Shown here: positions 13,051 to 46,766 of the stretch, in pieces
Numbering within the stretch: the first letter of the stretch is position 1
How the letters are laid out: each line of letters opens with the position of its first letter
Sequence record: PZ324410.1
Length of the DNA: 47,561 nt
Source: a phage
Direction: 5' to 3' (one strand)
Translations under genes and position numbers: made by a program
Notes under the pieces: generated by a model
What the model saw: only the letters and a program-made list of their open reading frames with translations
Databases searched by the model: none
Told to the model about the DNA's origin: nothing

Positions 13051-14804
<1,754 letters not shown>

Positions 14805-14806
14805 TA

Positions 14807-15877
14807 ATGGAAAAGATTATTTTTACCAAAGACCTGGTAGCCAACTCCGCAGTGGTGGCTGACCAGTGGAAACATCTGACCATCGACCGCAAGGTGTTCT
14901 GCAATGCAGAAGCTGAACTGGCGAAAACATACGGTGTTAACGCCACCGCACTGGTAACGAAAGATTACTGGCGCGACGTGGATAACGTCACCACCCGCGT
15001 TTTCCGTAACGAAGCTGGTCAGGACATGATGGCTGACCTGATGGGTATCGCGGCAAACATCAATATCGGTAAGACTGTGGCAGTCAGCCGCATCGCTTCC
15101 GATGCCGGTAAGGTGGTCCGCACCCTGTCTGGTCAGGAGCCGGAAGATTTGGACAAAACTCGCTATGATTACACTGGCGATGTGATTCCAATCTTCAAGA
15201 CTGGCTACAGCCGTGAATGGCGTGAACTGCTGGGTATGCAGTCTGAAGGTTTTGACCCACTGCTGGACGATCAGGCTAACGTCACCTTTAACCTGCGTTC
15301 CGACATGGCGCAGTATCTGCTGACTGGCGACCAGACCCTGAACGTGAACGGCGTTTACACTGGCTACGGTATCACCAACCACCCGAACACTGTTCAGGTT
15401 AACCTGAGCACTTCCCCCGGCCTGAACATTGACCTGCAAACCGCAACGCCAGACGAAATCGTGAAATTCTTCAATCAGGATTTCCAGGCTATTCTGGATG
15501 CGCAGAACGTATTTGAGCAGGTGACTCTGTGGGTTTCCCCGGCAGTGCGTCGCAGCTTCATGCGCCCGTATTCTGATGCGGCTGGCTTCAAAGGTGGTAC
15601 TGTTGAGCAGTACATCACGCAGTTCGGCAATGGTCGCATCGGCAAGATTGGCACCAACTTCCTGCTGACAGGCAACCATTTCGTTGGCTATGTTCGCAAC
15701 GACATGTACATCCGTCCGCGTGTTGCTCAGCCTGTTTCCACCTATGCGGCTGCCCGCGCCAACCCGCACGATAACTTTAACTTCCTCGTGTGGTCAGCTT
15801 TTGGCCTGCAAATCCGTAAGGATTTCACTGGTAAGTCCAAAGTGTTCAACGGCTACGGTACGCAAACTCCGCTGTAA
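14807..15877 (+). CDS. major capsid protein
   Basis: 356-aa ORF in lambda E-like position; strong terminator follows. Confidence 0.75.
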   Translation: MEKIIFTKDLVANSAVVADQWKHLTIDRKVFCNAEAELAKTYGVNATALVTKDYWRDVDNVTTRVFRNEAGQDMMADLMGIAANINIGKTVAVSRIASDAGKVVRTLSGQEPEDLDKTRYDYTGDVIPIFKTGYSREWRELLGMQSEGFDPLLDDQANVTFNLRSDMAQYLLTGDQTLNVNGVYTGYGITNHPNTVQVNLSTSPGLNIDLQTATPDEIVKFFNQDFQAILDAQNVFEQVTLWVSPAVRRSFMRPYSDAAGFKGGTVEQYITQFGNGRIGKIGTNFLLTGNHFVGYVRNDMYIRPRVAQPVSTYAAARANPHDNFNFLVWSAFGLQIRKDFTGKSKVFNGYGTQTPL

Positions 15878-16119: not shown

Positions 16120-16123
16120 ACAA

Positions 16124-16147
16124 AACCCGCATAATGCGGGTTTTTTA
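16124..16147. terminator. bidirectional rho-independent terminator
   Basis: aacccgc ataa tgcgggtt hairpin flanked by A-run and T-run. Confidence 0.65.
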
Positions 16148-16150
16148 TTG

Positions 16151-16690
16151 CTACAGACGCATCGGCATAACAACAATCTTCGCAGTCTCGCCAGATGGCG
16201 CACTAAGGCAGCAAACTGCTGCATTTGTATTTCCATTCAGTTCAAATTTGACACCACAGAATTTAGGATTAAACAGCTTCGCCACTTTCTCAATATCAAC
16301 AAGGTAGCCAGTATTGAATCCTATTTCCTCTGCTGCTTTCGTTTCCTTTGGTATCACGCGGTCAATATCGGGGAATCGACCATCAATCTCTTCGCAGATA
16401 CCAGCGCCAACCATCGCGCCAGCTTCATCATGATACGTTGCAATTTTCGACCCGGTATCAATGATGGCGTGCTCATAGCGCTTTGTTGGTGACTTGCCAA
16501 TCTTGATAATCACATTTTCCGTCAGCTTATTATCATGGACTCCGCCAATGAATGCACGATGGCCGTCAGTTGACGCAATGCGACCATCAGTCATAAAGCA
16601 GATGCCGTTCAGGTAGTATCGCACATCATTACGAGCCTGAAATATCAATGCTGACTCAAGTAATAGTTTGCTGATTTTTAGTTTCATCAC
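16151..16690 (-). CDS. truncated DNA polymerase III beta sliding-clamp homolog
   Basis: translation contains DVRYYLNG, TDGHR, DGRFPDxxRVxPK, EIGFN and C-terminal VVMPMRL, matching landmarks of the C-terminal two thirds of bacterial DnaN; about half normal length. Confidence 0.6.
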   Translation of the reverse strand: MMKLKISKLLLESALIFQARNDVRYYLNGICFMTDGRIASTDGHRAFIGGVHDNKLTENVIIKIGKSPTKRYEHAIIDTGSKIATYHDEAGAMVGAGICEEIDGRFPDIDRVIPKETKAAEEIGFNTGYLVDIEKVAKLFNPKFCGVKFELNGNTNAAVCCLSAPSGETAKIVVMPMRL

Positions 16691-16860
16691 TTCACCTTAA
16701 TCATGTGTTGTTTTGCAACCTTTAGGCATTCCTCAAAAATGCCACCCTTCTTAGTGCTCTGGTTTCGCTTGTAATACTGGATTGCCGCATCAATTGCCAT
16801 CTGGTCAATGTCAGGCAGCTTGTCACGAAGTTGTTTTTCGATGAATTGCTCAGCGTTCAT
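16687..16860 (-). CDS. hypothetical small protein
   Basis: ORF trimmed to ATG 16860 overlapping upstream stop. Confidence 0.4.
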   Translation of the reverse strand: MNAEQFIEKQLRDKLPDIDQMAIDAAIQYYKRNQSTKKGGIFEECLKVAKQHMIKVK

Positions 16861-17222
16861 AGGACCAACCACTTAGCTGGAATGATGTATCGAACTTCCG
16901 ATTCTGTTAAACCTAAGTCCATGCATATACTATCCACACTTTTCTGTGCAGGGTAATTTCGAGAGAAGTAGTTCCCCATCCACTCTCTAAGGCCTGTAAA
17001 GCATGGTATGTCATCGAAATCTGAGATGTCAGATGCAGCATTGAATGCCTTACTACATATCAAGCATTGTTTATAGGAAAACGCATCTCTTTCCGATGAT
17101 ACTCCTGATGAATACTTATATTTATCTCCTTTGTGTATTTCTCTTCCACACTCGCAGCATTTATGGCTCTTGATAGCTTTTCTTTCTATTTGTCTGAAAG
17201 CAAGTGGCTGTTCACCCATCAC
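16857..17222 (-). CDS. zinc-ribbon protein
   Basis: CCECG and CLIC Cys pairs in 121-aa ORF. Confidence 0.5.
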   Translation of the reverse strand: MMGEQPLAFRQIERKAIKSHKCCECGREIHKGDKYKYSSGVSSERDAFSYKQCLICSKAFNAASDISDFDDIPCFTGLREWMGNYFSRNYPAQKSVDSICMDLGLTESEVRYIIPAKWLVL

Positions 17223-18028
17223 ATCTTCTCCAGAATTGCCATGACCTCGTGAATATCAGCAACAGGAATCTGGATAAATTCCTCATCCTCTGCCACCACA
17301 TGACCAGCAGGGAGAATCACATGGTCAGCTGGCTTCAATAACTCAATCAGGCGGTCTACTGGCTTAATCTTTTTCGACTTCAGCACCTTTGCTGTGACTT
17401 TGTCCTTGCCTTGCGCCCTCGCTTCTTCTACCGCCTCGTCGATAACTTTTACTGCATCATCTCCATGTTCGCGCGTTACCGCTACGGCATTTGCATAGCT
17501 GATTTGTCCTGCACTGATGCGCGCTTTTACTTCCGCTGGAACATCACCCAGCGACAGATGCATTTGCACGTCAGATACTGAGCGGCCTACCTTTTTGGCA
17601 ATTTCTTCATTCGTCCAGCCAAAACCCTTCAGTCGCGTGTAAGCCTTTGCGCGTTCAAACGGGTCGAGTTGCTTGCCCTGACTGGATGACACCATGAAGG
17701 CGATTTTGTCAGCCTCGTCGCCAGTGAAATCCTTGCACTCAATGCGAACGATTGGTGCTCCGCGCTCAATGGCACGCAATGCGCCGAGATAGCGGTGCTG
17801 ACCATCAAGAATGCGGATTCCCTTCTCATCTGGAATAACTGTTAATGCTGGCAGTGGCTGTCCTGATTCCCAGCACTGCGCGAAATATTCAACGTGTTGC
17901 TCATCTGCTTCACGGATGTTATATCCAGGCTCCAGATAGATTTGCTCCACTGGCACGAGATAGGTTTTGTTCACAGCGATTCCGTTGCGCGTTTCTTTGT
18001 CTGAATAGATTTTGCTTAGTGTTTTCAT
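17219..18028 (-). CDS. ParB-like nuclease domain protein
   Basis: LDGQHRY-type ParB N-terminal motif plus predicted HTH segment (EEIAKKVGRSVSDV). Confidence 0.6.
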   Translation of the reverse strand: MKTLSKIYSDKETRNGIAVNKTYLVPVEQIYLEPGYNIREADEQHVEYFAQCWESGQPLPALTVIPDEKGIRILDGQHRYLGALRAIERGAPIVRIECKDFTGDEADKIAFMVSSSQGKQLDPFERAKAYTRLKGFGWTNEEIAKKVGRSVSDVQMHLSLGDVPAEVKARISAGQISYANAVAVTREHGDDAVKVIDEAVEEARAQGKDKVTAKVLKSKKIKPVDRLIELLKPADHVILPAGHVVAEDEEFIQIPVADIHEVMAILEKM

Positions 18029-18225
18029 TTAACTCTCGCCTCCATCATTCTTTCTGCGATAAGGTAAGCATGTTCAGCCTTCTCGCCATAACCCATATTT
18101 GGTGATGTAATTAATAGAGATTGCATTGCTTTTGCGGCAAAGTAATCACGTAGCGTTGCATCAGAAGCCATTTCTTGTCGCTTAACGTCATAATCAATAA
18201 ATTCATCTTTCATATCATTCACCAC
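18025..18225 (-). CDS. hypothetical protein
   Basis: 66-aa ORF, coupled. Confidence 0.45.
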   Translation of the reverse strand: MVNDMKDEFIDYDVKRQEMASDATLRDYFAAKAMQSLLITSPNMGYGEKAEHAYLIAERMMEARVK

Positions 18226-18406
18226 TTTCTTCTAACAATTGCTCGTAATATGCGACGTACTCATTGGCAAGATAGTACAGGCGCTCAGCAGACTTGCGTT
18301 CTGAATTACTTAAGTCATCAATAGACTCAATGTTGCCAATTGCATCAACACAATCATTGAAGTCTTGCTCCGTGTTACGAAATCGACAGTAGGACATGTT
18401 TGCCAT
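18215..18406 (-). CDS. hypothetical protein
   Basis: 63-aa acidic ORF. Confidence 0.45.
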   Translation of the reverse strand: MANMSYCRFRNTEQDFNDCVDAIGNIESIDDLSNSERKSAERLYYLANEYVAYYEQLLEESGE

Positions 18407-18408
18407 GA

Positions 18409-19032
18409 TTATTCCTCATCACCAGAATTAGCAATATCGTAAAACTGACCGTAGGTTATCTGCTTAAAGTTATCAGGTATCGTTACCTGTCCGTGACCTT
18501 CATCTTTTGTATTTGGCACGGCAAAAATCAGGCAATCATCCTTTTGCGGGTGTTTGCCGCCATAAGTAGACAGCATTGCAAAACCAAATCCGCGACCTGA
18601 TTGCTCGCCAATGCCTGTGCGTGCGATGCCGTAATGATTAACAATGTAGTCTTTCCATTCTGGCAATAACTTTAATTTCTCGTTTGCCTCGCGAATCACT
18701 GCGTCCAGCTTTTTGTTGTATTCTCGCCCGTCTTTTGTGTTACCCTTACCGCGAGCCACAATTACACGCTGACCTTCCCAAAAGTCTTCTCGCTTTATTG
18801 TCACTTGGCACGGAAATTCAAACTGCTTACTCCACACAAAACTCTCAAGCAAGCCACCACCAACAGCACCCCAACTGCGCGTTGTGGTAAATGCGATAGC
18901 ACCAACCTTTTTCATGGCATCGCCGAGAATTTCATTGCGGCGCTTTTGGATGTCGTCATATGCGTTAATAACTTTCTTAACATCAGCACCTTCAACCATG
19001 TAATAATCATAATGTTTTGCGTTACTGCTCAT
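18409..19032 (-). CDS. hypothetical protein (207 aa)
   Basis: ORF 18409..19050 trimmed to Met with GAGGTG RBS; first gene after promoter 19074..19102. Confidence 0.55.
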   Translation of the reverse strand: MSSNAKHYDYYMVEGADVKKVINAYDDIQKRRNEILGDAMKKVGAIAFTTTRSWGAVGGGLLESFVWSKQFEFPCQVTIKREDFWEGQRVIVARGKGNTKDGREYNKKLDAVIREANEKLKLLPEWKDYIVNHYGIARTGIGEQSGRGFGFAMLSTYGGKHPQKDDCLIFAVPNTKDEGHGQVTIPDNFKQITYGQFYDIANSGDEE

Positions 19033-19073
19033 CTTCATCACCTCTAACATTTATTGTTGTTTCTACGTCACTA

Positions 19074-19102
19074 ACTATAAACACCTCATCAATCTACGTC
19101 AA
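19074..19102 (-). promoter_or_regulatory. sigma70-like promoter TTGACG-N17-TATAGT on minus strand
   Basis: hexamers with 17-nt spacer on reverse complement; -35 lies in atctacgtcaa repeat. Confidence 0.45.
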
Positions 19103-19149
19103 CTGGAATATGCTAAAATTATGCTAATCAAACAACAGGAGATTTAAAC

Positions 19150-19269
19150 ATGGGTTCAACAAACGGTCCGTCTCGTTCACGCGCTACTGGCAACACCAAA
19201 ACTGGCGGCAAAACTGGCGCAGTGAAGCCAAACGGCTCCACCCGTTCACCATCGCGCGGTAAGAAATAA
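19150..19269 (+). CDS. small basic Ser/Thr/Gly-rich protein
   Basis: 39-aa hand-called ORF; AGGAG RBS; TAATG coupling to next gene. Confidence 0.35.
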   Translation: MGSTNGPSRSRATGNTKTGGKTGAVKPNGSTRSPSRGKK

Positions 19270-21537: not shown

Positions 21538-21614
21538 TGGTGGACACGGACGGATTTGAACCTTCAATCAGCCGATTATGAGTCGGTTGCTTTAACCAAT
21601 TAAGCTACGCGTCC
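21538..21614 (-). tRNA. tRNA with CAU anticodon (Met or Ile2), CCA encoded
   Basis: hand-folded on minus strand: 7-bp acceptor stem GGACGCG/CGTGTCC, D-arm GCTT-AATTGGTTA-AAGC, anticodon loop CUCAUAA, T-loop GGTTCAAATCC; one mismatch each in anticodon and T stems. Confidence 0.6.
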
Positions 21615-22021: not shown

Positions 22022-22687
22022 TTAAATCAAGCCTTCGTCAGTTAGCTTGCCGATAATCCACATCTCTCCTTCAGCATAAAACATAGCTTGTGAGTGCCCT
22101 GTTTCTGTCTCGCGCATAATGCCGTATCCTTTGTCGATGAACCATTGCTGGAAGACTCGTCCACGCTTAACAGAGCGATTGTACACATCGAATTGCTCAA
22201 GCTGTCTGTTTAGCCATACTGCTGACTGTCCAAACTTCTGTGCAACCTGTGTTGCATTGTAAAGATTGTTTCGCTCAACGATGCGATCATAGACATCTGC
22301 TTTTGGTGCCATCTCCTTGTTTTCAAGCGCAAGCTTCTCTTTCTCTTTCTCTGAGGCAAGTAATGCCTCCAGTGCTTCAATATAGTTTTGCGGAAGATTT
22401 GGCTTGCTAACCTGCGATTCCAGTTCTTGCCATCGTCTAATGATGGCAGCGCGCATTTTGATGCTATATCCTGACACCAGAATTAATGTTTCCTCCTTAT
22501 CCAAAAGAAGCATTTGATACGTGCGCCCTCTGCTGTCTTTGTAATCTCCTAACTTTTCAGGAGATTGAATTTCAGCTAACATTTTTCGTATGTCAGCCAA
22601 AACATTGTCATGCCGTTTCCCTGTCAACTCCGAAATCTCACGGCTTGACATGGTTTGCACTTTACCAACATTCATTAATGCGTTCAT
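22022..22687 (-). CDS. Rha/ORF6N-type phage regulatory protein with KilA-C-like C-terminal domain (antirepressor-like)
   Basis: N-terminal SSREISELTGKRHDNVLADIRKM motif; coiled-coil linker; C-terminal KilAC-like segment. Confidence 0.55.
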   Translation of the reverse strand: MNALMNVGKVQTMSSREISELTGKRHDNVLADIRKMLAEIQSPEKLGDYKDSRGRTYQMLLLDKEETLILVSGYSIKMRAAIIRRWQELESQVSKPNLPQNYIEALEALLASEKEKEKLALENKEMAPKADVYDRIVERNNLYNATQVAQKFGQSAVWLNRQLEQFDVYNRSVKRGRVFQQWFIDKGYGIMRETETGHSQAMFYAEGEMWIIGKLTDEGLI

Positions 22688-24274: not shown

Positions 24275-24757
24275 TTACTTTTTGCCGTGGTTTTCATGAA
24301 AGTTATAATAAATTTCTGCATTTTTTCTAGCTCTCCCTGCATCATTGATATCACTAAAAAAACCCAATGAAATCTCTTTCTTGTTAACTGATATTCTCGC
24401 CCTCCACTTCCCCATTCTTTTGGACCAGCTAACGCCAACAATACCACTTGTGTTATCTATCCTTTTTGAAAGATTTACACTGTTTTCTTGCCTGCTTACA
24501 ATCCTCAGGTTTTCAATTCTGTTATCCAGCCTGTCATGGTTAATGTGATCAATCTCCATACCGTCAGGTATTGGGCCGTTATGCATTTCCCATATAACTC
24601 TATGCACAAGCTGCGTTTTGCCAAACAAGCTAACCTGCAAATAACCATCTGGTCGAACAGTTCCTGCATTATGACCAGCCATGGCATTTGAAGACCTCCT
24701 TGCTTTCCATTTCAAGGCACCACAATCATATTCAAAAATATCATCCAAAATATTCAT
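24275..24757 (-). CDS. HNH homing endonuclease (HNH + AP2-like)
   Basis: LVHRVIWEMHNGPIPDGMEIDHINHDRLDNRIENLR and GIVGVSW motifs; paralog of 46263..46766. Confidence 0.7.
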   Translation of the reverse strand: MNILDDIFEYDCGALKWKARRSSNAMAGHNAGTVRPDGYLQVSLFGKTQLVHRVIWEMHNGPIPDGMEIDHINHDRLDNRIENLRIVSRQENSVNLSKRIDNTSGIVGVSWSKRMGKWRARISVNKKEISLGFFSDINDAGRARKNAEIYYNFHENHGKK

Positions 24758-24834
24758 CTTAAAACCACCAATCAAGACAATTAAGATACAAATCTACATC
24801 ATATCTACACCATCATCAATTGGTTTTCTCTCTA

Positions 24835-28422: not shown

Positions 28423-28426
<4 letters not shown>
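27950..28426 (+). CDS. minor tail protein (lambda M-like position)
   Basis: 158-aa ORF immediately after tape measure. Confidence 0.55.
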
Positions 28427-32548
<4,122 letters not shown>

Positions 32549-34542: not shown

Positions 34543-34968
34543 CTAATTTTGTTTTGGATAATTCTTCGATCTCCAGTCGTTAAAAGCCATCATTGCTGCT
34601 TCCCATCCTAGCGCTACACACACTGTGCATCCGGCATTTAAAGATGCGGAAAGGTAATCAATCTGGCCTTCCTCCCAATCGCTAAGAGTGTGGTCTTTCC
34701 TCTTCATCTCAATAACAAGAGATGGATTTCCAGGGATTATTATATCTGACGCACCTTTATTTAAAGCGCCTTTCTTTTTTAGGTTGCTGACCTCATGTGC
34801 TTTTCTCTTTCCTTCGTTTGGAATGTGAAGCACCAGCCGACCAAAACTATCAGGATACATTTTCCTCAATTGATTTATAAAAGTTACAAGCTCAGCGTCT
34901 TCAACATGACACTTCTTGTCTCTGTATGTTTTATCTCCATATACCTTTAGCCATTCAGGAAAAATCAT
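34543..34968 (-). CDS. VRR-NUC domain nuclease
   Basis: PD-(D/E)xK-like core DIIIPG...VIEMKRK in 141-aa ORF trimmed to ATG 34968. Confidence 0.5.
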   Translation of the reverse strand: MIFPEWLKVYGDKTYRDKKCHVEDAELVTFINQLRKMYPDSFGRLVLHIPNEGKRKAHEVSNLKKKGALNKGASDIIIPGNPSLVIEMKRKDHTLSDWEEGQIDYLSASLNAGCTVCVALGWEAAMMAFNDWRSKNYPKQN

Positions 34969-36830
34969 AATACCCCCCAATACATGCCTTTAACGTTGAA
35001 ATATTTACTACCCTTATCTCTTCTGAACATAATCACTGATGGCGAGACAGCCTCATCTCTTTTAGATATTGCATCATCAATTGACATGTTATGTTCACCA
35101 AAGCACTTCTCACAAAATTCTTCCCACTCCTTCTTCATCCATTCCTTCTCAGAGTTTGGATTGTAGAACTTGCTAACAAAAAATGGTTTCTGTTCAATAG
35201 CAAATTTTACGTGCACCAAATCTTCACCGCTTGAAACGTAATGCTTCATGATGTTCATCATGGTTACACTTGATTGCTTGGTTGCATAAGGAGAAGAATC
35301 AAGCCTGTCAGCTTCTTCCTTTAGTTTTTGGTTGGGGTCAATAATTTCAGCTCCGCATGATGTGCAATTTCTTGCTGCTATATCATTTTCAAACCCACAA
35401 TCTGGACACTCCTTTACCGACCATTTATAAGTACACCTATGCATTTCCCTTAGTGGTCCATGCATAACGTAGTTTTTACACCGCCTACCAAAATGAGCAG
35501 GCATGGGCTTGCTTCCAATCTTTTCACCTGACTTATCAAAAATATCAATCATTACTCTGTCACCCGCCAAATCCAGCCAGTAACCTTCCTTGTCAACTTC
35601 AAGATTTTCAGGATTTGGGCGCACACCAAATTCATTAATAAAGCCACAAAGAGGGCATTTGACATCCATTGGCACGGATGGTTTTTTCCTTGTTGCTTTT
35701 ATTTCTGGAGTGAACAAGTCCCCGGTCTCAGAAAAGTGACGTTGAATATTGCCTGCGTAATCGCTGACAAGAAAGTCTTCCTTGCCTTCATAAAGACGCG
35801 TCCCCCTGCCAATTATTTGCTGGTATAGTCTTGGTGATTCTGTGGCTCTCATTACTGCTATGTGATCACAATGAGGAACATCCACCCCTACAGTAAGGAT
35901 ATTCTGATTGACGATGTATTTAACTTTTTGCGCCTTGAAGTCTGATATTGCCTTATTGCGTTCAGCTGTCGGCATATCACCAAAAACATAACTATAAGAA
36001 CCGGGAGGCAGTGACTCCATTATCTCCATAGCGTGTTTCTTTGTGCTGGCAAAAATCATCGTTCCGAGACGATTAACGGAGCGACGGATAATATCTTCAA
36101 CAATACGTGATGTCTTCCTTCCCTTGCCAACCATCGCCTTTTCAACTGAAGATGTTGTGTACCGACCCAACTTATCCTTTTCAAGACAAGACGTATCATA
36201 CTCGTCAAAAACAGGCTCTGTAACTGGCGGCGTAAGGTATCCGTTTTCAATGAGGAATTTCGCCTCAAGCTCATAAACGACTTTGTCGTAATATGGGTCT
36301 ATGGCTGTTTCTTCATCTGTAGGACCGTCGAGGTAATGCTCTTTGTAGATGTATCCAGTTCCAAGGCGATAAGGCGTAGCGGTCATTCCAATAACACGCA
36401 GTTTTGGATTGCGACGCTTCATTTCATTAATAATAAATTTAATGGTTGGTGTTATTCCATCGCACTCATCAATAATGACAGCACCATACTTATCACCAAA
36501 CATCTCTATTGAGTTCTTGATTGTAACTGGTGAACCAAACACCACCGGATGACGCAGGTTTTTTGGGCCAGCCTTTGCACTGAACATGCTGGCTGGTTCT
36601 CCGGTGAGAAGATATTTAGCGCGATTTTGTGTGACGAGTTCCGCCGTGGGAGCAATGCACAAAACTCGCTTTTTGCTCATGCCATAAATACGAGATGCAA
36701 GTTCTGCTACAACCATAGATTTTCCTGCACCTGTAGGTAGGATGATAACGCATGATGAGATTGTGCTGCGAATGTGTGCCATAGCTGAATCAACAGCTTC
36801 CTGTTGGTATGGCCTTAGTGTGTATTTCAT
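34965..36830 (-). CDS. SF2 DEAD/DEAH-box DNA helicase with C-terminal zinc fingers
   Basis: Walker A PTGAGKS, DECD box, MTATP motif, QIIGRGTR motif VI; Cys pairs near C-terminus. Confidence 0.8.
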   Translation of the reverse strand: MKYTLRPYQQEAVDSAMAHIRSTISSCVIILPTGAGKSMVVAELASRIYGMSKKRVLCIAPTAELVTQNRAKYLLTGEPASMFSAKAGPKNLRHPVVFGSPVTIKNSIEMFGDKYGAVIIDECDGITPTIKFIINEMKRRNPKLRVIGMTATPYRLGTGYIYKEHYLDGPTDEETAIDPYYDKVVYELEAKFLIENGYLTPPVTEPVFDEYDTSCLEKDKLGRYTTSSVEKAMVGKGRKTSRIVEDIIRRSVNRLGTMIFASTKKHAMEIMESLPPGSYSYVFGDMPTAERNKAISDFKAQKVKYIVNQNILTVGVDVPHCDHIAVMRATESPRLYQQIIGRGTRLYEGKEDFLVSDYAGNIQRHFSETGDLFTPEIKATRKKPSVPMDVKCPLCGFINEFGVRPNPENLEVDKEGYWLDLAGDRVMIDIFDKSGEKIGSKPMPAHFGRRCKNYVMHGPLREMHRCTYKWSVKECPDCGFENDIAARNCTSCGAEIIDPNQKLKEEADRLDSSPYATKQSSVTMMNIMKHYVSSGEDLVHVKFAIEQKPFFVSKFYNPNSEKEWMKKEWEEFCEKCFGEHNMSIDDAISKRDEAVSPSVIMFRRDKGSKYFNVKGMYWGVL

Positions 36831-37204
36831 AAGTCAAACTCCTTGCACCACTCGACAACATGCTCGCACTGCTTAACATCAAACATTCCTATGTGACACT
36901 TCTCTTTTCTTATTCCCATCGAACTAGCTAATGCAGAATAAGCAGAGCCTCTTGACATTTTTCCTGATTTCCATAAGGGATCAAATGCAGCATGGGCTTT
37001 GCTTTTTGCCTTTCTTAATTCTTCATTTGCCACACGCCCAAGAGGTCTTTTCCCATCACCATTTTTGTGGCAACCAACATAAGCACCACAAGAATCACAT
37101 AGATAAAAATTAAGAGACGAAAGGTCTGGTCTGTGTGGGTAAATTTCACTCCCTTTAGCTAGTCTTGTCGCAATATTGCAGTAATCACAGATAACTTCGT
37201 ACAT
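36827..37204 (-). CDS. zinc-finger protein
   Basis: CDYC and CDSC Cys pairs; ORF trimmed to ATG 37204 with GGGGG RBS. Confidence 0.5.
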   Translation of the reverse strand: MYEVICDYCNIATRLAKGSEIYPHRPDLSSLNFYLCDSCGAYVGCHKNGDGKRPLGRVANEELRKAKSKAHAAFDPLWKSGKMSRGSAYSALASSMGIRKEKCHIGMFDVKQCEHVVEWCKEFDL

Positions 37205-37261
37205 ATAAACCCCCAATTAAAAGCCCCTTAGCGGGGCTTTATTTAAATAAACATCAAGTCA

Positions 37262-37783
37262 TTAAAACGGCACGTCAGAGTCAAAGTCCATCGGAGGCTC
37301 GTTAGATGGCGCTGATTGCTTAGGAGCAGGCGCTGATTTTGTTTGTTGACGACTGAAAACACCAGCCACATAGTTACCAGTTTTTTGCTTATCCTCAGAT
37401 TCCCAAACGCGCAGAAGAAGGATCATCGGGCGATTAGCAAGCGCACTAGCAATAGCAAAATCAGTCGGCTCTTTCCCTGACGCCATCAGCTTGCCACCAG
37501 CGTTTGCGTCAATTGCTGCAAGCATAGTGATAGCATTGTCGCGCTGCTTTTCTTTTGAGCTAAATACTTTCAGCTTCTGGAAGATGATGCGATTTTTATA
37601 CTCACCATCAAGGATTCTCCACTTAAGATTGAAGAATCGCTCACCTTCCCACTGATCGTCTTTACACTCTTCAACGGCAGCAAGAACACGGCTGCCATCA
37701 GGAATTACTTCGAAACCACCACCCAGCTCAAATTCAGATTTAGATTCAACAGCTTTACCGTCAGAAAGATTCCAGAAACCCAT
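37262..37783 (-). CDS. putative ssDNA-binding protein with SSB-like acidic C-terminal tip
   Basis: C-terminus MDFDSDVPF resembles bacterial SSB tip DFDDDIPF; sits beside Gp157 and AAA_24 genes. Confidence 0.5.
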   Translation of the reverse strand: MGFWNLSDGKAVESKSEFELGGGFEVIPDGSRVLAAVEECKDDQWEGERFFNLKWRILDGEYKNRIIFQKLKVFSSKEKQRDNAITMLAAIDANAGGKLMASGKEPTDFAIASALANRPMILLLRVWESEDKQKTGNYVAGVFSRQQTKSAPAPKQSAPSNEPPMDFDSDVPF

Positions 37784-37800
37784 TTTTGTGTCCTCTCGAT

Positions 37801-38280
37801 TTATTTGATGATCAGTTTTGGCTTGCCATCTGTAATGGCACAACCCTTAATCTCAATCCCGGCTTTTATCGCATTTTTAATTGCTGCGTTATCTGCCGAC
37901 ACTTTCACAACGCGGTACTGCTCAGGAAGCTGTTCAACAGGGACAAACACATCAAGAACTGGTGATGGTTTTCCAAGCGTGATACTGAACAACTTACCTT
38001 TGATGTTTGTCTTTCCTGACGCCATCATGTTTTGACGAAGATAATCTTTAAGGTTATCAATCTTCGCAACTAAAACACGCTTACGCTCAGAAAGACGGTC
38101 AATCTCTGATTTAAGTCCAGCTTCATCAGCTTCAAGCTCACGAATGTAAGCAGCAACCATTTCAGCCTTTCCTTCAAACTCCTCTTCAATAAGATTGATG
38201 GTATCTTCAATCTGCTCCCGTGGAATATCCTCCATCGCCAGTAGTTCATTAAGCTGTTTGGTTATCTCGTAGAGATGCAT
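37801..38280 (-). CDS. Sipho_Gp157 family protein
   Basis: N-terminal MHLYEITKQLNEL and coiled-coil typical of Gp157; start uncertain. Confidence 0.55.
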   Translation of the reverse strand: MHLYEITKQLNELLAMEDIPREQIEDTINLIEEEFEGKAEMVAAYIRELEADEAGLKSEIDRLSERKRVLVAKIDNLKDYLRQNMMASGKTNIKGKLFSITLGKPSPVLDVFVPVEQLPEQYRVVKVSADNAAIKNAIKAGIEIKGCAITDGKPKLIIK

Positions 38281-39091
38281 AATATTTAATCTCACTCAAA
38301 AGTGGGTTCTCACCTTTTTCAAAAGGAATTTCAGGTTCAAGGTTGTATCTGTTTTTAGCATTAACATACCCAATACGACCATCACCAGAGGTGATAAGAA
38401 CTCGCTGACCAGTCTGAACAACCTTTCCAAACTTGGTGACTTGCCCTTTCTTATCAGTCTCAGTTCCTTTCACAAACTCTTCATTTCTGATGTAAATAAC
38501 AGCATCACTAAGATTCACATAACCAGAAACTGAAGCATCATGCATGTCAAGTGTGTAAACGGTGTATTCATCAGCATCAGGTCGATTCTTCATCTTTTTA
38601 ACACCTGCGTGTGCAAGATAAATAATGCTCATCCCTTTTTCTTTGCGAAGATACTTGCATGCATTTATTATTTCAGCGTGCATTTCAGAAACAACAATAT
38701 ATCCTTTGTTGTAACCACCAGCCGCAGAACCTACGTTGTCAACACCGTAATTTTCACAAACCTCATGCTCAAACATTGAATGCAGGCTTGTGATTGAGTC
38801 AATTACAAGCGTTTTGTAATTATGTTCCTCAGTAATTAATGCGCGTAGCTGTGACAGCAAATCATCCTTTGTGCTTGTTTTGCGTTTAGCGTCAGCGCGA
38901 TTCAGAACAGGAAATGAATCAGGTTTCTTTTCATCATCCCAGTCATCAAAAACACCAGTGATCTCTTCAGCCTGAATAAACACTGGGTTTGGGAATAGCG
39001 CCGCAAGAGTTGTCTTGCCTACACCTGGAGTACCAACCAATGTTATGATTGGTGCTGCTGGTTTTGGTTTTTGAATCATTGATAAGCTCAT
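38249..39091 (-). CDS. AAA_24 family ATPase (Sak4-like)
   Basis: Walker A GTPGVGKTT and Walker B-like VIDSITSL; GAGAGGACA RBS. Confidence 0.7.
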   Translation of the reverse strand: MSLSMIQKPKPAAPIITLVGTPGVGKTTLAALFPNPVFIQAEEITGVFDDWDDEKKPDSFPVLNRADAKRKTSTKDDLLSQLRALITEEHNYKTLVIDSITSLHSMFEHEVCENYGVDNVGSAAGGYNKGYIVVSEMHAEIINACKYLRKEKGMSIIYLAHAGVKKMKNRPDADEYTVYTLDMHDASVSGYVNLSDAVIYIRNEEFVKGTETDKKGQVTKFGKVVQTGQRVLITSGDGRIGYVNAKNRYNLEPEIPFEKGENPLLSEIKYYASLRDNQTA

Positions 39092-39225
39092 AGTGTCCTC
39101 TCGATTTAACTCAGCATATCGCTGGTGTGACTTAAAGATACGTCAACATGATGGTAAACGCAATAGCTTGACGCAAATTTTTTTTGAGTTCATTATTGCT
39201 GCATACAGATAGCAGAGGTAAACAC

Positions 39226-39468
39226 ATGAAAAGCATCGCAGAACAGATAAGAGAAATGGAACAGACGAAGTTGTCGGAGCTGATTGATTATGTTGGAGGG
39301 CAATCACAACTGGCAAGATTTCTTGGTGTGTCAAAACAGGCTGTCAATCAGTGGGTGTCAAGAGGAAGAATTAGTGCTACAGCAGCAATTGATGCCGAGG
39401 CGCTTACTGGTGGAGTTTTCAGAAAGGAAGATTTAAGGCCAGCTGTTACAAAATGGATTGTTAAATAA
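39226..39468 (+). CDS. Cro/YdaS-like HTH DNA-binding protein
   Basis: helix-turn-helix QSQLARFLGVSKQAVNQW; divergent from recombination operon; ORF trimmed to ATG 39226. Confidence 0.6.
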   Translation: MKSIAEQIREMEQTKLSELIDYVGGQSQLARFLGVSKQAVNQWVSRGRISATAAIDAEALTGGVFRKEDLRPAVTKWIVK

Positions 39469-39470
39469 TA

Positions 39471-39497
39471 AAGCCCGCGTTTGCGGGCTTTTTTTAA
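39471..39497. terminator. bidirectional rho-independent terminator
   Basis: aagcccgc gttt gcgggctt hairpin then TTTTTTT. Confidence 0.7.
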
Positions 39498-39889
39498 ACT
39501 CCTTTTGAGCTTAAGCTATCTTTATCACGCCTTCCGCTATACTCTTTGCTTACATCCTCGTACAAAACACCAAACGCCTTACAGAAATTAAATAGTGCGT
39601 CACCCGCAAACACTTCGCTTGGATGCCAGTTTCCGGATTTTCTTGCAACATCCCTGTACGATGCTGTCACTATACCTACATTGTTTTCATATTGTATTCG
39701 ACAAAACAGTACGTCATCATCAATGCAGATACCCATATTGCAGCGGAATACGGGCATTTTCCAGTAGTAAACCTCCATCAGGTGTTTCCCTGTCATCATG
39801 GATATTGCGTTATCATGTGCGCGCTCAGGATTTTCTGACTCAAAATAGTCATACAAACCCCTCATCACCAGATACTTGTAATTGATCAT
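39494..39889 (-). CDS. hypothetical protein
   Basis: 131-aa ORF, overlap-coupled to primase gene. Confidence 0.5.
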   Translation of the reverse strand: MINYKYLVMRGLYDYFESENPERAHDNAISMMTGKHLMEVYYWKMPVFRCNMGICIDDDVLFCRIQYENNVGIVTASYRDVARKSGNWHPSEVFAGDALFNFCKAFGVLYEDVSKEYSGRRDKDSLSSKGV

Positions 39890-42219
39890 ATCTCAACCTC
39901 ATCATTTGTTAATTTATAAATTATTACGTTGTGAGATGTTCTTTTTGCATTTTCATCAATGCAAATAATACCATCTGATAACAACTTCTCTACGCACCTC
40001 TCGACATCAGCACGTTTATACCCACCTTCTTTTGCCACCCCTCTAACCATTGCTGTTTTGGTCATTCCACGCTTCACATATTCTTTAACCATGGAGAAAA
40101 TACCTTCAATTCTTTCTTCCATAGCTTTAGACTTCGCTCCGGCGATACTGTCAGCACGCATCATCAGATCGCTTGTTGATTTAATTGTTAATGCTACCGC
40201 ATATCTCAAGTGCTCCATGGTTATGACACCAGTATCGCACGCAAGAATGCCAGCAATCTTTGCCACTTTTACAGCGCATCTGTTTATCAATGGATGATAA
40301 CCAGTACCGTTTTCTACATGCTTTCTTGCAACGGTTTTAATCCATGAGAAGAACTCCTTAGCGAGCTGAGAAACTTCAGGAGTAGCTTTTATAATCCGTC
40401 TTTCTTTTTGACTGATTATTGAGTCTGTCCAGTTTTTGTGCCCAGCGGTTCCGCCATTTATTATTGTTTTTATGGTCAGTTGCATATCCATTGGCAGATC
40501 GCAGTAGTTGACGTTTTCGTTTTCGTCAGCAATCTCCTGCAACTCCTGCATAATCATTGCGCGCCCCATAAGACCTGACTTAATGTTTTCTTCAGTAATA
40601 AGGCGCTTAAACTGATCATCAGTAGACACGCCAAAGATTGAAAAAAATGGATTCCTTATAGCTCCATCAATTCTGTTTATCACATCATCAAACTGACACT
40701 TAATGTCAACAGGGTCTGCCTGTATCTCATTTTCCTCAATAGCCATCAACAGCATAGCCTTTCTCTTTTCGAAAGACTTAATGAAATCCTCAGTAACCCG
40801 CTGGTCACAATAAAGAACTTCTGACGTGTAAGCCTCCATGATCGCACCAGCGGTTGCCATGTTGTACTCGCTTACTTTCTGACCAACAACACTACCAAGT
40901 TTTATCCCAATCTCATCCATGATGATATTAAACATCTGGTTAGCACAAAGACCTTCATATATCGCACGCTCTGAACGTATCTTACCGGCGACAGTCTTAC
41001 TCAATCCTGAGCAATCAATTATCTTTTGTAGCGCAGCAAGAACATCACCCTTACCTGAACCTGAACCAGCGATACCAACAGCAAAAAGGTTTGGCAAAGC
41101 CTTCCTGTTTGTAAGGTAAATATCAGATGACGCTCCGCAAATCATGGATGCGGCATGCAATGCGGCAAGTGCTGCAATGTTCTCTCGCTTCTCTGCACAG
41201 TTCTTATTAATCCACGCCGTAAGGCGACCAACAAATCCAGGCGGATAACGGACATCAACACTTTTGTACTCTACAGGGCATTCACCAACACCCATTGCCA
41301 TCTCTCGCTCGAAAGACTCAAGTTTCTCAATTTCCTCTGGAGTAGCCTCAAAAGTTACTTGCCTTACCCACCCTCCCTCTTGCGCGAGATAAACCAGCGT
41401 TGCTTCGGTTATCTTTTCGCTAACACCGTCCTTTCCAAAGGAATGCCATTTTGCGTCCATCTCTTCAGCTCTGTACTTGCTGAACTGCGATGACCACCTA
41501 TCCCAAAGCTCAAAACCATTGCCTTCTGTAGCTTCGTGGATAGCCATACCTACATGAAGCCATGGGTCATACTCATCACCATCTTTGATGTATTTGAGCA
41601 TATCCTCCATTTCGGAAATGCTGTAATTTTTACTATCAAGCGTGAAAACCTCGTCTTCCGTTCTCTCAGGACGCAACAAAAGCTCAATAAGTTCAGATGG
41701 ACATTCAGTTATCTCTGAAGGGGATCCATGCTCGGCCTCATAAAAGTTTCCAGTTTTATGAAAAGAACCACATCCAACAACAAAACCAGAGGATTTAAAG
41801 TCAATACCCTTAAACCTTCTGTCATGAGAGCGCAGCTTTATTCCTTCAGGAAGTTTGTAATAGATGTGGCGACCACCACCACCAGTCTTAACCGTAAAAC
41901 CAGCTTCGTCAGCAAGCTCTACGTCTAAGGCATCACAAAGCGATTCATATCCATCATTACCTCCGTTGCGTGGATCAATATCAACGACCAGATAACCATT
42001 CACAAGGACACCGAATGACTGCAGTTGACCATATTCAGCCATATTTTCAATCTGGTCATCAGCCCATATAACTCCAAGCTGCCAGTTACTCATAACCGGA
42101 TGCTTACCGGCAGCATTGCAATCTGGATCACCGCATGTGCAATTGCGGTCGATATCCATTGCATGGATTCCAATAATAGGGAAGCCACATTTGCGGTAAT
42201 CTTCATAACCAATCATCAT
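39886..42219 (-). CDS. DNA primase/helicase (Prim-Pol N-terminal domain plus P-loop NTPase)
   Basis: N-terminal Prim-Pol-like region with acidic DIDPRNGG motif; Walker A GIAGSGSGKG in central region. Confidence 0.7.
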   Translation of the reverse strand: MMIGYEDYRKCGFPIIGIHAMDIDRNCTCGDPDCNAAGKHPVMSNWQLGVIWADDQIENMAEYGQLQSFGVLVNGYLVVDIDPRNGGNDGYESLCDALDVELADEAGFTVKTGGGGRHIYYKLPEGIKLRSHDRRFKGIDFKSSGFVVGCGSFHKTGNFYEAEHGSPSEITECPSELIELLLRPERTEDEVFTLDSKNYSISEMEDMLKYIKDGDEYDPWLHVGMAIHEATEGNGFELWDRWSSQFSKYRAEEMDAKWHSFGKDGVSEKITEATLVYLAQEGGWVRQVTFEATPEEIEKLESFEREMAMGVGECPVEYKSVDVRYPPGFVGRLTAWINKNCAEKRENIAALAALHAASMICGASSDIYLTNRKALPNLFAVGIAGSGSGKGDVLAALQKIIDCSGLSKTVAGKIRSERAIYEGLCANQMFNIIMDEIGIKLGSVVGQKVSEYNMATAGAIMEAYTSEVLYCDQRVTEDFIKSFEKRKAMLLMAIEENEIQADPVDIKCQFDDVINRIDGAIRNPFFSIFGVSTDDQFKRLITEENIKSGLMGRAMIMQELQEIADENENVNYCDLPMDMQLTIKTIINGGTAGHKNWTDSIISQKERRIIKATPEVSQLAKEFFSWIKTVARKHVENGTGYHPLINRCAVKVAKIAGILACDTGVITMEHLRYAVALTIKSTSDLMMRADSIAGAKSKAMEERIEGIFSMVKEYVKRGMTKTAMVRGVAKEGGYKRADVERCVEKLLSDGIICIDENAKRTSHNVIIYKLTNDEVEI

Positions 42220-42653
42220 TTAACCCTCACCACATAAGCGGTATTACGTGCAACCATCTTGACACTGAATTTTTTTTGCAGCTTCTTACCAACCACGGAA
42301 AGCGCACTTCTCAACTGCTCAATACTCCTTATCAACGCAAAATCATCAAACACAAAATGCTTTCCCTTACCCAAACCAAGTCGGTAGACGAAGTTGCGAG
42401 CCTCTCCCTCCATTGTCGGTTTTTGCTCCCACACAGACGCGGCCCGTTTTTTTACCCTTTGCTCCTTGCATTTTATTTCACACGGGAGATGCGGCTTCCG
42501 CCACGCCATATACCTCTCAGCCTCCTCTATTGTTTTGAAAAACTTTGCATAGGTAAAATCATGCAGAAAACCACATCTACCGCTGGCATATACCTTTTTA
42601 CCATCAGCCCCAATTGCCTCAATGTAGTACCTTTTCATATCCCAACACCTCAC
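42216..42653 (-). CDS. hypothetical protein
   Basis: 145-aa basic ORF, coupled. Confidence 0.5.
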   Translation of the reverse strand: MRCWDMKRYYIEAIGADGKKVYASGRCGFLHDFTYAKFFKTIEEAERYMAWRKPHLPCEIKCKEQRVKKRAASVWEQKPTMEGEARNFVYRLGLGKGKHFVFDDFALIRSIEQLRSALSVVGKKLQKKFSVKMVARNTAYVVRVK

Positions 42654-46162: not shown

Positions 46163-46297
46163 ATGATTTGTCAAACATGTGGTAAGGAACTTCTTCCTGG
46201 ATGCCGTAAGGATAAGAAGTATTGCTCTCCTTATTGCAAGTTAAAAGCCACGAGGAGGAGAAATGCTGACAGAAAACAGAGAGTTCAAGTGGGATGA
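46163..46297 (+). CDS. small zinc-ribbon-like protein
   Basis: 44-aa hand-called ORF with CQTCG and CSPYC; overlaps HNH start by 35 nt. Confidence 0.25.
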   Translation: MICQTCGKELLPGCRKDKKYCSPYCKLKATRRRNADRKQRVQVG

Positions 46298-46766
46298 TGT
46301 ATTTGATTATAGCGATGGGGTGCTGTCGTGGAAAATTAAGCCTTGCAAGAACATGAAAAAATCATCTCCAGCTGGAACAATGAGAAACGATGGTTACTTG
46401 CAAGTAAGATTCATGAACAAGATACATTTGATTCATAGGATTGTATGGGAAATGTTTAACGGCGAGATACCTGATGGTATGCAGATAGACCACATCAACC
46501 ACGACAGGAGTGACAACAGAATTCAAAACTTAAGGATGGTTACTAAAATATCAAACGGTAGAAATTTGACCAAGAAAACAAATAACACTAGTGGTGTTAC
46601 TGGCGTCTCATGGTACAAAAGCCGGGGGAAGTGGAGGGTGCAAATAATGGTTGACAGAAAAAGTATACACATTGGGTATTTTAGTGATTTTGAATCAGCT
46701 GTTGCCGCAAGGATTTCTGCTAATGAAAGGTATGGGTTCCACAAAAATCACGGAGTGAATTGTTGA
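46263..46766 (+). CDS. HNH homing endonuclease (HNH + AP2-like)
   Basis: LIHRIVWEMFNGEIPDGMQIDHINHDRSDNRIQNLR and GVTGVSWYK motifs; AGGAGGAG RBS. Confidence 0.7.
   Translation: MLTENREFKWDDVFDYSDGVLSWKIKPCKNMKKSSPAGTMRNDGYLQVRFMNKIHLIHRIVWEMFNGEIPDGMQIDHINHDRSDNRIQNLRMVTKISNGRNLTKKTNNTSGVTGVSWYKSRGKWRVQIMVDRKSIHIGYFSDFESAVAARISANERYGFHKNHGVNC

Follow-up and report, generated by a model that had tools for sequence, protein, structure and literature searches.

Classic morons are single prophage genes expressed in lysogens, and the concept of morons and accessory hot spots in tailed phages reportedly goes back to Hendrix and Juhala. For the sliding clamp of E. coli, a natural short form termed beta* (dnaN*), which consists of domains II–III, is said to have been described by Skaliter, Paz-Elizur and Livneh in 1996. 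Phage homologues of ParB can activate DNA-modifying enzymes, as in the case of ParB-dependent phage thymine dioxygenases, and orphan ParBs on mobile elements have been noted for many phages (PMC13229309). The eaC gene of phage P22 is located in the early-left 'ea' region, adjoining xis (P22 table, PMC4837284). Here, we compare these systems with a locus at positions 16151–19032 of the phage sequence record PZ324410.1, where seven minus-strand genes, which we call g1 to g7 from the terminator-proximal to the promoter-proximal end, lie between the capsid and the neck genes. All positions refer to the window, i.e. the whole analysed stretch of 47,561 nucleotides (nt), which is essentially the nearly complete genome of a virulent Salmonella/E. 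coli siphophage of the Guernseyvirinae (Jersey-like). We propose that the region is probably a moron-like accessory operon, inserted antisense between the capsid and neck operons and made up of non-structural genes that were gained and lost independently of each other.

A preliminary description of this DNA, made from the letters alone, had reported seven co-directional minus-strand open reading frames (ORFs) bracketed by a bidirectional terminator and a promoter of their own. After refinement of ORF starts against annotated relatives, all seven are present and tightly packed, and direct reading of the sequence reveals overlapping stop and start codons (ATGA or TGATG) at the junctions g5/g4, g4/g3, g3/g2 and g2/g1, a pattern as in a translationally coupled operon. 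The GC skew turns negative over 16–19 kb, matching the expectation for leftward genes. The terminator could be confirmed as well, since AAAACCCGCATAATGCGGGTTTT at 16122–16144, followed by a T-run, is predicted as an intrinsic terminator on either strand (complete element 16122–16150, AAAACCCGC-ATAAT-GCGGGTTTT plus T-run) and its stem is unchanged in the five relatives Bas79, KFS-SE2, ZCEC08, sal3 and BS5, two of which hold an extra insert and a second terminator at this site. Terminator-like hits are enriched in the region (11 versus 4.4 expected), and the element is predicted to end transcription from both sides, that of the capsid operon (rightward) as well as that of the cassette (leftward). 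The cassette promoter, read leftward from 19102 to 19074 with a −35 hexamer TTGACG (19102–19097), a 17-nt spacer and a −10 hexamer TATAGT (19079–19074), is near-consensus and the best sigma-70 match of the region (10/12 positions). Because promoter-like hits occur at chance frequency (7 versus 7.1 expected), the scan by itself would not suffice, and the assignment relies on conservation and position: everything between the −35 hexamer and the ribosome-binding site is invariant across seven phages while the flanks diverge, and one of the seven is Klebsiella phage ZCKP2, with a ParB of only 80% identity.

Hundreds of relatives carry the cassette at the same genomic position. Over the 3.2-kb region, the unannotated Escherichia phage ECO95 1-6-1 matches with 100% identity, and the Salmonella and Escherichia phages KFS-SE2, Akira, Bas77/79 and LPST10 match with about 91% identity; in total, 202 phage records match on the DNA level. 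For a comparison of gene content, 79 IMG/VR loci were retrieved via g4, the seven proteins were scored locally, and counts were taken on the 63 loci carrying both capsid and adaptor genes, in all of which g4 is present by selection. Here g2 is almost constant (62/63) and g1 frequent (48/63), with g6 (13/63) and g7 (9/63) found in a minority and g3 and g5 in a single locus each (1/63); not one of the 63 loci holds all seven genes, and the distance between capsid and adaptor genes ranges from 2.2 to 6.2 kb. Wherever g1 is found, it is located downstream of g4 on the same strand (48/48). The g3 position is a variable slot, occupied in relatives by a C5 DNA methyltransferase, an HNH endonuclease or small ORFs; across the cassette, slot contents comprise the C5 methyltransferase (Bas79, ZCEC08), the HNH endonuclease (BS5), an 'anti-restriction' gene (KFS-SE2, sal3, BS5), other small ORFs, or nothing. 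In some relatives g1 is swapped for an unrelated 92-aa ORF, and recombinants are present, e.g. a Salmonella-type capsid and g1 combined with a Klebsiella-type g4, placing breakpoints inside the cassette. Salmonella phage SB28 (Macdonaldcampvirus) represents a natural near-complete deletion, in which capsid genes, neck genes and promoter are shared with the present phage and a terminator is retained. What is left of the cassette (locus L017, 14409–14800) is a 40-aa ORF that keeps the last ~28 ParB-like residues, followed by a g2 homologue. Since SB28 has lost nearly all cassette genes, the cassette is not needed for morphogenesis.

Outside this family the genes occur separately. As a lone antisense gene among head genes, g1 is found in EP23 (Dhillonvirus; locus L005, 3507–4019) and Bcep781 (Naesvirus; locus L006, 3498–4079); in the temperate Hafnia phage yong1 it is placed between cII and the O/P replication genes, and in Vibrio K249 among small early-type genes. 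Neither ParB nor EaC was found near g1 in EP23, Bcep781, yong1 and K249, and the EP23 gene adjoining the mini-clamp, tried as a ParB candidate, is not a ParB. It should be noted that an antisense mini-clamp inside the head-gene region, lone or in a short cassette, recurs in three unrelated lineages (Guernseyvirinae, Dhillonvirus and Naesvirus). In Jilinvirus, Shewanella 1/44 and Bas82, g4 homologues are accompanied by other genes. Those of Morganella lambdoid prophages are flanked by a cII-like gene and O/P genes, and in a Brenneria prophage (locus L020, 6001–8218; 46% identical) one is found near an integrase and two genes away from a PAPS-reductase-family gene, a layout which resembles the IbrB/IbrA-type pairing of ParB-like and PAPS-reductase proteins of many phages. 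The position of both g1 and g4 homologues just 5' of O/P-type replication genes in temperate phages fits a replication-associated, non-late role.

The cassette thus has a backbone in fixed order, comprising promoter, g4, g2, g1 and terminator, which is interrupted by swap-in slots; in this phage the slots hold EaC (g7), the tiny ORFs g6 and g5 and the zinc-ribbon gene g3. In our model, the cassette genes serve non-structural functions in DNA handling or host interaction and were acquired and lost independently. Judged at the sequence level, the locus has the features expected of a moron-like cassette, namely a conserved promoter and terminator of its own, variable content and a near-complete natural deletion in SB28. 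Searches for head, neck or tail homology of the seven proteins were negative in Pfam, PHROGs, NCBIfam, PDB sequence searches and fold searches, and no PADLOC defence-system model matched any of them. Together with the loss of nearly the whole block in SB28, the missing virion homology agrees with the preliminary description, which had held these genes to be non-morphogenetic.

The gene closest to the terminator, g1 (16151–16687/16690, minus strand, 178–179 aa), belongs to PHROG 3007 (E = 3e-61). It had been labelled beta-clamp-like beforehand, and phmmer against the PDB confirms this label, returning the E. coli and Enterobacter beta clamps (E = 5e-14 for E. coli DnaN). Scores against the clamp families are low, with TIGR00663 at E = 1.6e-9 and 37 bits, far under the cutoff of 137.65, and partial Pfam matches to PF02767 (18.5 bits) and PF02768 (16.1 bits) under a cutoff of 27. 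Three tandem clamp domains above family cutoffs are not found in g1, in which domain I is absent. A MAFFT alignment shows that g1 consists of DnaN domain II (residues ~136–250) joined directly to the C-terminal half of domain III (~316–366), and that DnaN residues 1–135 (domain I) and 251–315 are missing from g1 and from all distant family members. The same 1.5-domain layout is seen in the 28–54% identical homologues of Shigella EP23, Burkholderia Bcep781, Hafnia yong1 and Vibrio K249. The head-to-tail dimer interface of DnaN is not kept in the alignment. We take the ring interface of DnaN to be formed where domain I meets the strand of domain III that surrounds I272/L273. Lacking domain I as well as the half of domain III with I272/L273, g1 should be unable to close a ring of the DnaN type.

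The peptide-binding pocket, in contrast to the rest of the protein, is well preserved: g1 and E. coli DnaN agree at 19 of 22 pocket positions, compared with 27% identity elsewhere (Fisher p = 1e-7). This difference between pocket and rest also holds between the most distant phage members, and pocket residues are kept even in members of 28–38% identity (EP23, Bcep781, Vibrio K249). Beyond the residues confirmed in the literature, the remaining positions of the 22-position list are presumed by us to line the pocket. The DnaN residues kept in g1 are R152, Y153, L155, T172, G174, H175, R176, P242, R246, V247, N320, Y323 and V360–L366. For R152, G174, H175, L177, P242, R246, V247, V360, M362 and P363, a location in the peptide pocket is confirmed (PMC3716654). 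Taking the alignment at face value, the segments retained in g1 are exactly those building the peptide-binding pocket of the clamp, and the ring-making parts were dropped. Most likely, then, g1 would bind clamp-binding motifs of the QL[SD]LF type in host replication and repair proteins, acting as a decoy or an adaptor. Candidate targets would be Pol III alpha, epsilon and delta, Hda, Pol II, IV and V, MutS/MutL and ligase, and captured partners could either be titrated off the host clamp or be handed to the phage replisome. No DNA polymerase was found among the proteins encoded in the window, where the replication genes are those for a prim-pol/helicase, an SF2 helicase, Sak4 and single-stranded DNA-binding protein (SSB). 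The phage therefore presumably replicates via host Pol III, which renders a recruitment of host Pol III by g1 attractive. A paper on a related phage names a gene 'DNA polymerase I', which probably corresponds to the prim-pol of the replication module.

The g1 family (PHROG 3007) comprises at least 304 phage records from several unrelated lineages, including Guernseyvirinae, Dhillonvirus, Naesvirus, Vibrio, Acinetobacter, Pseudomonas and temperate lambdoid phages. Its PHROG label, 'RusA-like Holliday junction resolvase', is wrong, since the sequence is that of a DnaN fragment without similarity to RusA; this misannotation has spread into many RefSeq and pharokka records (e.g. loci L001, 4152–4688; L002, 911–1447; and L005, 3507–4019). 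In Bcep781, gp15 is already annotated as 'DNA Pol III b subunit fragment', and a 'DNA polymerase III sliding clamp' is mentioned at the level of a genome announcement (PMC9825357). In the searchable literature we found no description of truncated phage clamps. We tentatively suggest that the family may constitute an undescribed class of phage host-interaction proteins, a non-encircling, pocket-only clamp derivative which captures host clamp-binding motifs; we hold this to be possible, if short of probable.

The second main component of the cassette is its backbone gene g4 (17219–18028, minus strand, 269 aa, PHROG 1033). It was previously described as ParB-like with a helix-turn-helix (HTH), in line with the matches to HTH_ParB (PF17762, E = 2.6e-11, 44 bits, cutoff 22.6) and KorB (PF08535, E = 8.8e-6, 26 bits, cutoff 22.3) and, in the PDB, to Spo0J, ParB, Noc and KorB. 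In HMMER alignments with T. thermophilus Spo0J and M. xanthus ParB, box II of g4 reads DGQHR and not GERR(xR), GERR being aligned to GQHR, and box III is lost, with ENLQRED aligned to SSSQGKQ. The Pfam ParBc domain is matched neither by g4 nor by any member of its family. A ParA-type Walker ATPase was not found in the window, which lacks a KGGxxK[ST] motif and has a Sak4-like protein as its only plausible P-loop protein, and neither were repeated palindromic (parS-like) sites, the perfect 16-bp palindromes amounting to two unrelated single copies versus ~0.7 expected. The palindrome GTTGACAGCTGTCAAC (14070–14085, within a 428-aa head gene), which Bas79 and ZCEC08 share unchanged and which ZCKP2 and SB28 lack, was rejected as a parS candidate, its conservation lying within chance. 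These features indicate that g4 is not a partition protein. It would rather be a sequence-specific DNA-binding protein with an altered or lost CTP switch; its target would be phage or host DNA, where it could serve in regulation or help to direct neighbouring enzymes. In 86 phage records g4 is conserved with at least 99% amino acid identity, and relatives that are 91–93% identical on the DNA level differ by 56–68 synonymous versus 1–3 non-synonymous codons, which points to extreme purifying selection.

The cassette promoter is further marked by a genome-wide motif. TGAYGTAGA is the most over-represented word of the genome, its 8-mer cores occurring at 12–17 times expectation, and all of its 14 exact copies (positions 1848, 1865, 1944, 7667, 7696, 7725, 10533, 10557, 19062, 19093, 22715, 24215, 24793 and 43489) are intergenic. 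Usually the motif is placed 27–37 nt 5' of the start codon that opens a unit, or overlaps a −35 hexamer. Within the structural half, it precedes every leftward patch (~1.85–1.94, 7.7, 10.5, 19.1, 22.7, 24.2 and 24.8 kb, with an Ant-like gene at 22.7 kb and HNH genes at 24.2 and 24.8 kb), and it also lies 5' of three rightward units. At the cassette, the −35 hexamer forms part of the motif, and two direct TGACGTAGA repeats, 31 bp apart on the minus strand, are found at 19101–19093 (overlapping the −35) and at 19070–19062 (just 3' of the −10), both invariant across relatives. SB28 also has 14 copies of the motif, and the unrelated EP23 and Bcep781 have 1–2. An interpretation as an early-promoter mark was rejected, as the motif also heads the lysozyme/spanin (lysis) cassette.

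Several observations weigh against our interpretation of the cassette and of g1. The pocket is the most conserved part of DnaN in general, and the alignment of g1 is itself partly anchored on the pocket. For g1, AlphaFold2 (AF2) gave a poor monomer model (pLDDT, predicted local distance difference test, of 53), which in Foldseek retrieves beta clamps only, with low template modelling (TM) scores; at this confidence we draw no structural conclusion for g1. A scan of the phage proteome yielded no credible QL[SD]LF or QLxLxL clamp-binding motif in genuine phage genes, and the polymerases of EP23 and Bcep781 contain none either; QLDPF and QMHLSL in g4 were dismissed, since they lie within conserved structural helices of the ParB fold. 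A simple 'recruit host Pol III' correlation does not exist, because g1 occurs in phages with and without a polymerase and is missing from the polymerase-less SB28. A mini-clamp that compensates for the absent polymerase is likewise unsupported, with EP23 and Bcep781 having both polymerase and mini-clamp and SB28 neither. Because the lysis cassette shares TGAYGTAGA, the motif at our cassette cannot be taken as a mark of early expression, and the extreme conservation of g4 suggests a role more central than 'accessory'.

Alternatively, the seven genes could constitute one self-contained, co-inherited host-takeover or DNA-handling system with cooperating parts, as the preliminary description had it. 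The single shared promoter and terminator, the translational coupling pattern and the order g4–g2–g1, which is fixed in the family (48/48), are compatible with this idea, but we consider it very unlikely in view of the mosaicism described above: no locus has all seven genes, g3, g5 and g7 are restricted to 1, 1 and 9 of 63 loci, g1, g4 and g7 are each found alone in unrelated phages or prophages, and breakpoints as well as the replacement of g1 by the 92-aa ORF fall inside the cassette. The gene-neighbourhood comparison called for in the preliminary description hence produced the outcome which it had itself named as speaking against such a unit, i.e. genes scattered in unrelated contexts. What remains of the DNA-handling proposal are two genes of this type, the ParB/KorB-like HTH protein and the DnaN fragment, but not a seven-gene unit; host takeover stays a hypothetical role of the cassette. 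A narrower reading, in which g4 is the targeting or activating partner of a DNA-modifying enzyme from the adjacent slot and the cassette a DNA-modification or anti-restriction unit, can draw on the published phage ParB homologues that activate such enzymes (PMC13229309), on the C5 DNA methyltransferase adjoining g4 in Bas79, ZCEC08, HC6 and others, on the 'anti-restriction' gene in the cassette of relatives and on the PAPS-reductase-family gene near the Brenneria g4 homologue. We nevertheless judge it unlikely, given that the slot encodes a zinc-ribbon protein and no enzyme in the present phage, that g4 occurs without a methyltransferase in most relatives, and that the published activator ParBs are devoid of the DNA-binding domain which g4 possesses. 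A role of g4 in plasmid-type partition or nucleoid occlusion, with the region as a ParB partition module, as automated annotations ('partition protein') and the best PDB and NCBIfam similarities (Spo0J, ParB, Noc) might imply, is scarcely credible in a virulent-type phage with no lysogeny genes seen, whose window contains neither a ParA-type Walker ATPase nor a repeated palindromic site, and for a family which has not conserved the CTPase motifs of boxes II and III and never scores with Pfam ParBc.

Two further explanations assign the cassette a role in phage replication or regulation. If four subunits of 1.5 domains, or some other oligomer, rebuilt a six-domain ring, g1 would be a genuine processivity clamp and the cassette a replication-accessory operon. 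The clear DnaN homology, the sum of 4 x 1.5 = six ring domains (which is arithmetic only), the location of g1 directly 5' of replication genes in temperate yong1 and a poor monomer model, as would be compatible with an obligate oligomer, are in its favour. However, both natural ring interfaces are gone (domain I and residues 251–315), 15 of the 63 relatives as well as SB28 live without g1, and there is neither a clamp-loader gene nor a clamp-binding motif in the phage replication proteins, so that a ring-forming g1 appears improbable to us. For g4, a function as master regulator of a TGAYGTAGA regulon was conceivable, which in the manner of KorB of RK2 would autoregulate the cassette via the two promoter repeats. 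The KorB/ParB-type HTH and the extreme conservation of g4 would suit this function, as would the most enriched 8-mer of the genome with its 14 purely intergenic copies, two of which bracket the cassette promoter 31 bp apart and are unchanged in relatives. We rejected it as the main model and regard it as distinctly unlikely: SB28 has nothing of g4 but a 40-aa C-terminal remnant and yet retains 14 copies, including both at the cassette promoter, so that g4 is not needed to maintain the motif. Unlike the sites of KorB, Noc and ParB (parS), TGAYGTAGA is moreover non-palindromic, and as it overlaps −35-like and −10-like hexamers, it may be plain promoter sequence; it could also be an operator for another factor. 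A moron-like operon of independently exchanged genes remains our preferred interpretation.

The remaining genes of the cassette fit this interpretation as exchangeable accessory genes, EaC and the small ORFs presumably being swapped with temperate phages. The first gene, g7 (18409–19032, minus strand, 207 aa), was listed in the preliminary description as a 207-aa unknown and singled out for profile and structure searches, and turned out to be an EaC/DUF5420 homologue. Its homologues are named Eac/DUF5420 by NCBI, and in tblastn it is 71.4% identical to P22 eaC over the full length and of the same size; the Pfam model PF17457 (DUF5420) reaches E = 0.1 only. It is an accessory gene that also occurs in temperate P22-like prophages, and only ~18 Jersey-like records carry it. 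With a pLDDT of 86, the AF2 model of g7 is confident; it has no neighbour in the PDB, the BFVD matches being uncharacterised phage proteins only, and none of the searches indicated virion homology. An exhaustive profile search among 1.84 billion proteins returned 93 cluster representatives, of which full-profile matches are ~190–210 aa long without an informative extra domain and the others are shorter fragments. The small genes g2 (16687–16860, 57 aa, or 61 aa from an upstream GTG; PHROG 4439, E = 4.8e-22; stop overlapping the g1 start), g3 (16857–17219, 120 aa), g5 (18025–18213/18225, 62–66 aa; PHROG 2201, E = 3.9e-10) and g6 (18215–18406, 63 aa; PHROG 8760, E = 3.7e-26), all on the minus strand, match unknown-function PHROGs only. 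Of these, g3 is found in 6 phage records; the CxxC...CxxC pattern agrees with its previous designation as a zinc ribbon, but no family was matched.

The phage is of a virulent type, and lysogeny genes were not seen. The capsid genes (13051–15877) and the neck genes (~20.0–21.5 kb) are transcribed rightward, as are the tail genes, and the replication block (34543–42653, minus strand) encodes the SF2 helicase, SSB, the Sak4-like annealase, a prim-pol/PriCT-2/DUF3987 primase-helicase and a DUF3268 zinc-finger protein. Back-to-back with the cassette promoter, sequence reading locates an extended −10 element, TGCTAAAAT (19111–19119, plus strand), in a block that is conserved in the promoter alignment and which may act as a rightward promoter element for a 39-aa ORF and the membrane and neck genes. 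This ORF, MGSTNGPSRSRATGNTKTGGKTGAVKPNGSTRSPSRGKK (19150–19269, plus strand), is very basic and rich in Gly, Ser and Thr, and constitutes the first gene of the rightward membrane-protein/neck operon; it is annotated as hypothetical in relatives. Directly after the neck genes, a tRNA-Met (CAT; 21538–21614, minus strand) is supported by Rfam (63 bits) and ARAGORN, and is the sole match of the Rfam scan, which detected no RNA families inside the cassette. Since relatives hold differing tRNAs (Arg, Met, Ile) there, the site at ~21.5 kb is a further variable locus. The genome is dotted with small self-contained inserts: four more break the structural/late region at 22022–22687, 24275–24775 and 28423–29037 (all minus strand) and 46263–46766 (plus strand), and encode one Ant-like anti-repressor-family protein and three homing-endonuclease-type genes of the HNH class (HNH_3 + AP2).

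As a whole, the region is an ordinary case of exchangeable accessory genes residing in self-transcribed cassettes between essential operons, and its mosaic nature corrects the idea of a dedicated seven-gene machine. In the literature we found no functional study of cassette genes in Jersey-like phages, the mentions being at the level of genome announcements only. The components belong to known families (DnaN fragment, ParB/KorB-like HTH, DUF5420), and many deposited genomes show the cassette; among its elements, only the pocket-only clamp family could turn out to be new in kind, provided that its proposed activity is true. In case g1 does bind clamp-binding motifs, it would represent a new phage route to tap or jam a hub of host replication and repair, as well as a natural reagent for targeting the clamp pocket, an antibiotic target. 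The 'RusA-like' label of PHROG 3007, in turn, is an error that is propagating through annotations. With a sequence that is almost frozen in more than 100 phages (synonymous to non-synonymous ratio of ~30–60:1), g4 may well belong to the expanding class of ParB-fold regulators that are found on mobile elements and have no part in partition.

In comparison with the systems introduced above, the cassette resembles morons in being a promoter–genes–terminator unit of its own between two essential operons, with a content that varies among close relatives and that can be lost without loss of the flanking functions. It differs from them in comprising multiple genes, in residing in a virulent phage and in having a strongly conserved backbone (g4, g2). 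Similar considerations apply to its components. The alignment of g1 to domain II and the end of domain III, and the retention of the pocket residues, relate it to DnaN, from which it is set apart by its 1.5 domains, the lost ring contacts, scores far under the family cutoffs and its being encoded by a phage. With beta* it shares the absence of domain I, but g1 in addition lacks residues 251–315 of domain III, including the dimer-interface strand. Like ParB, Spo0J, Noc and KorB, g4 has an HTH_ParB and KorB DNA-binding domain and an N-terminal ParB/Srx-like segment, and is of comparable length with a C-terminal domain; in contrast to them, it comes without canonical boxes II and III, a ParBc match, ParA, an identified KorA-like partner or an array of palindromic sites. 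Finally, g7 is ~71% identical to P22 EaC and of the same length, yet its carrier here is a virulent siphophage, where it opens an antisense cassette within the structural region.

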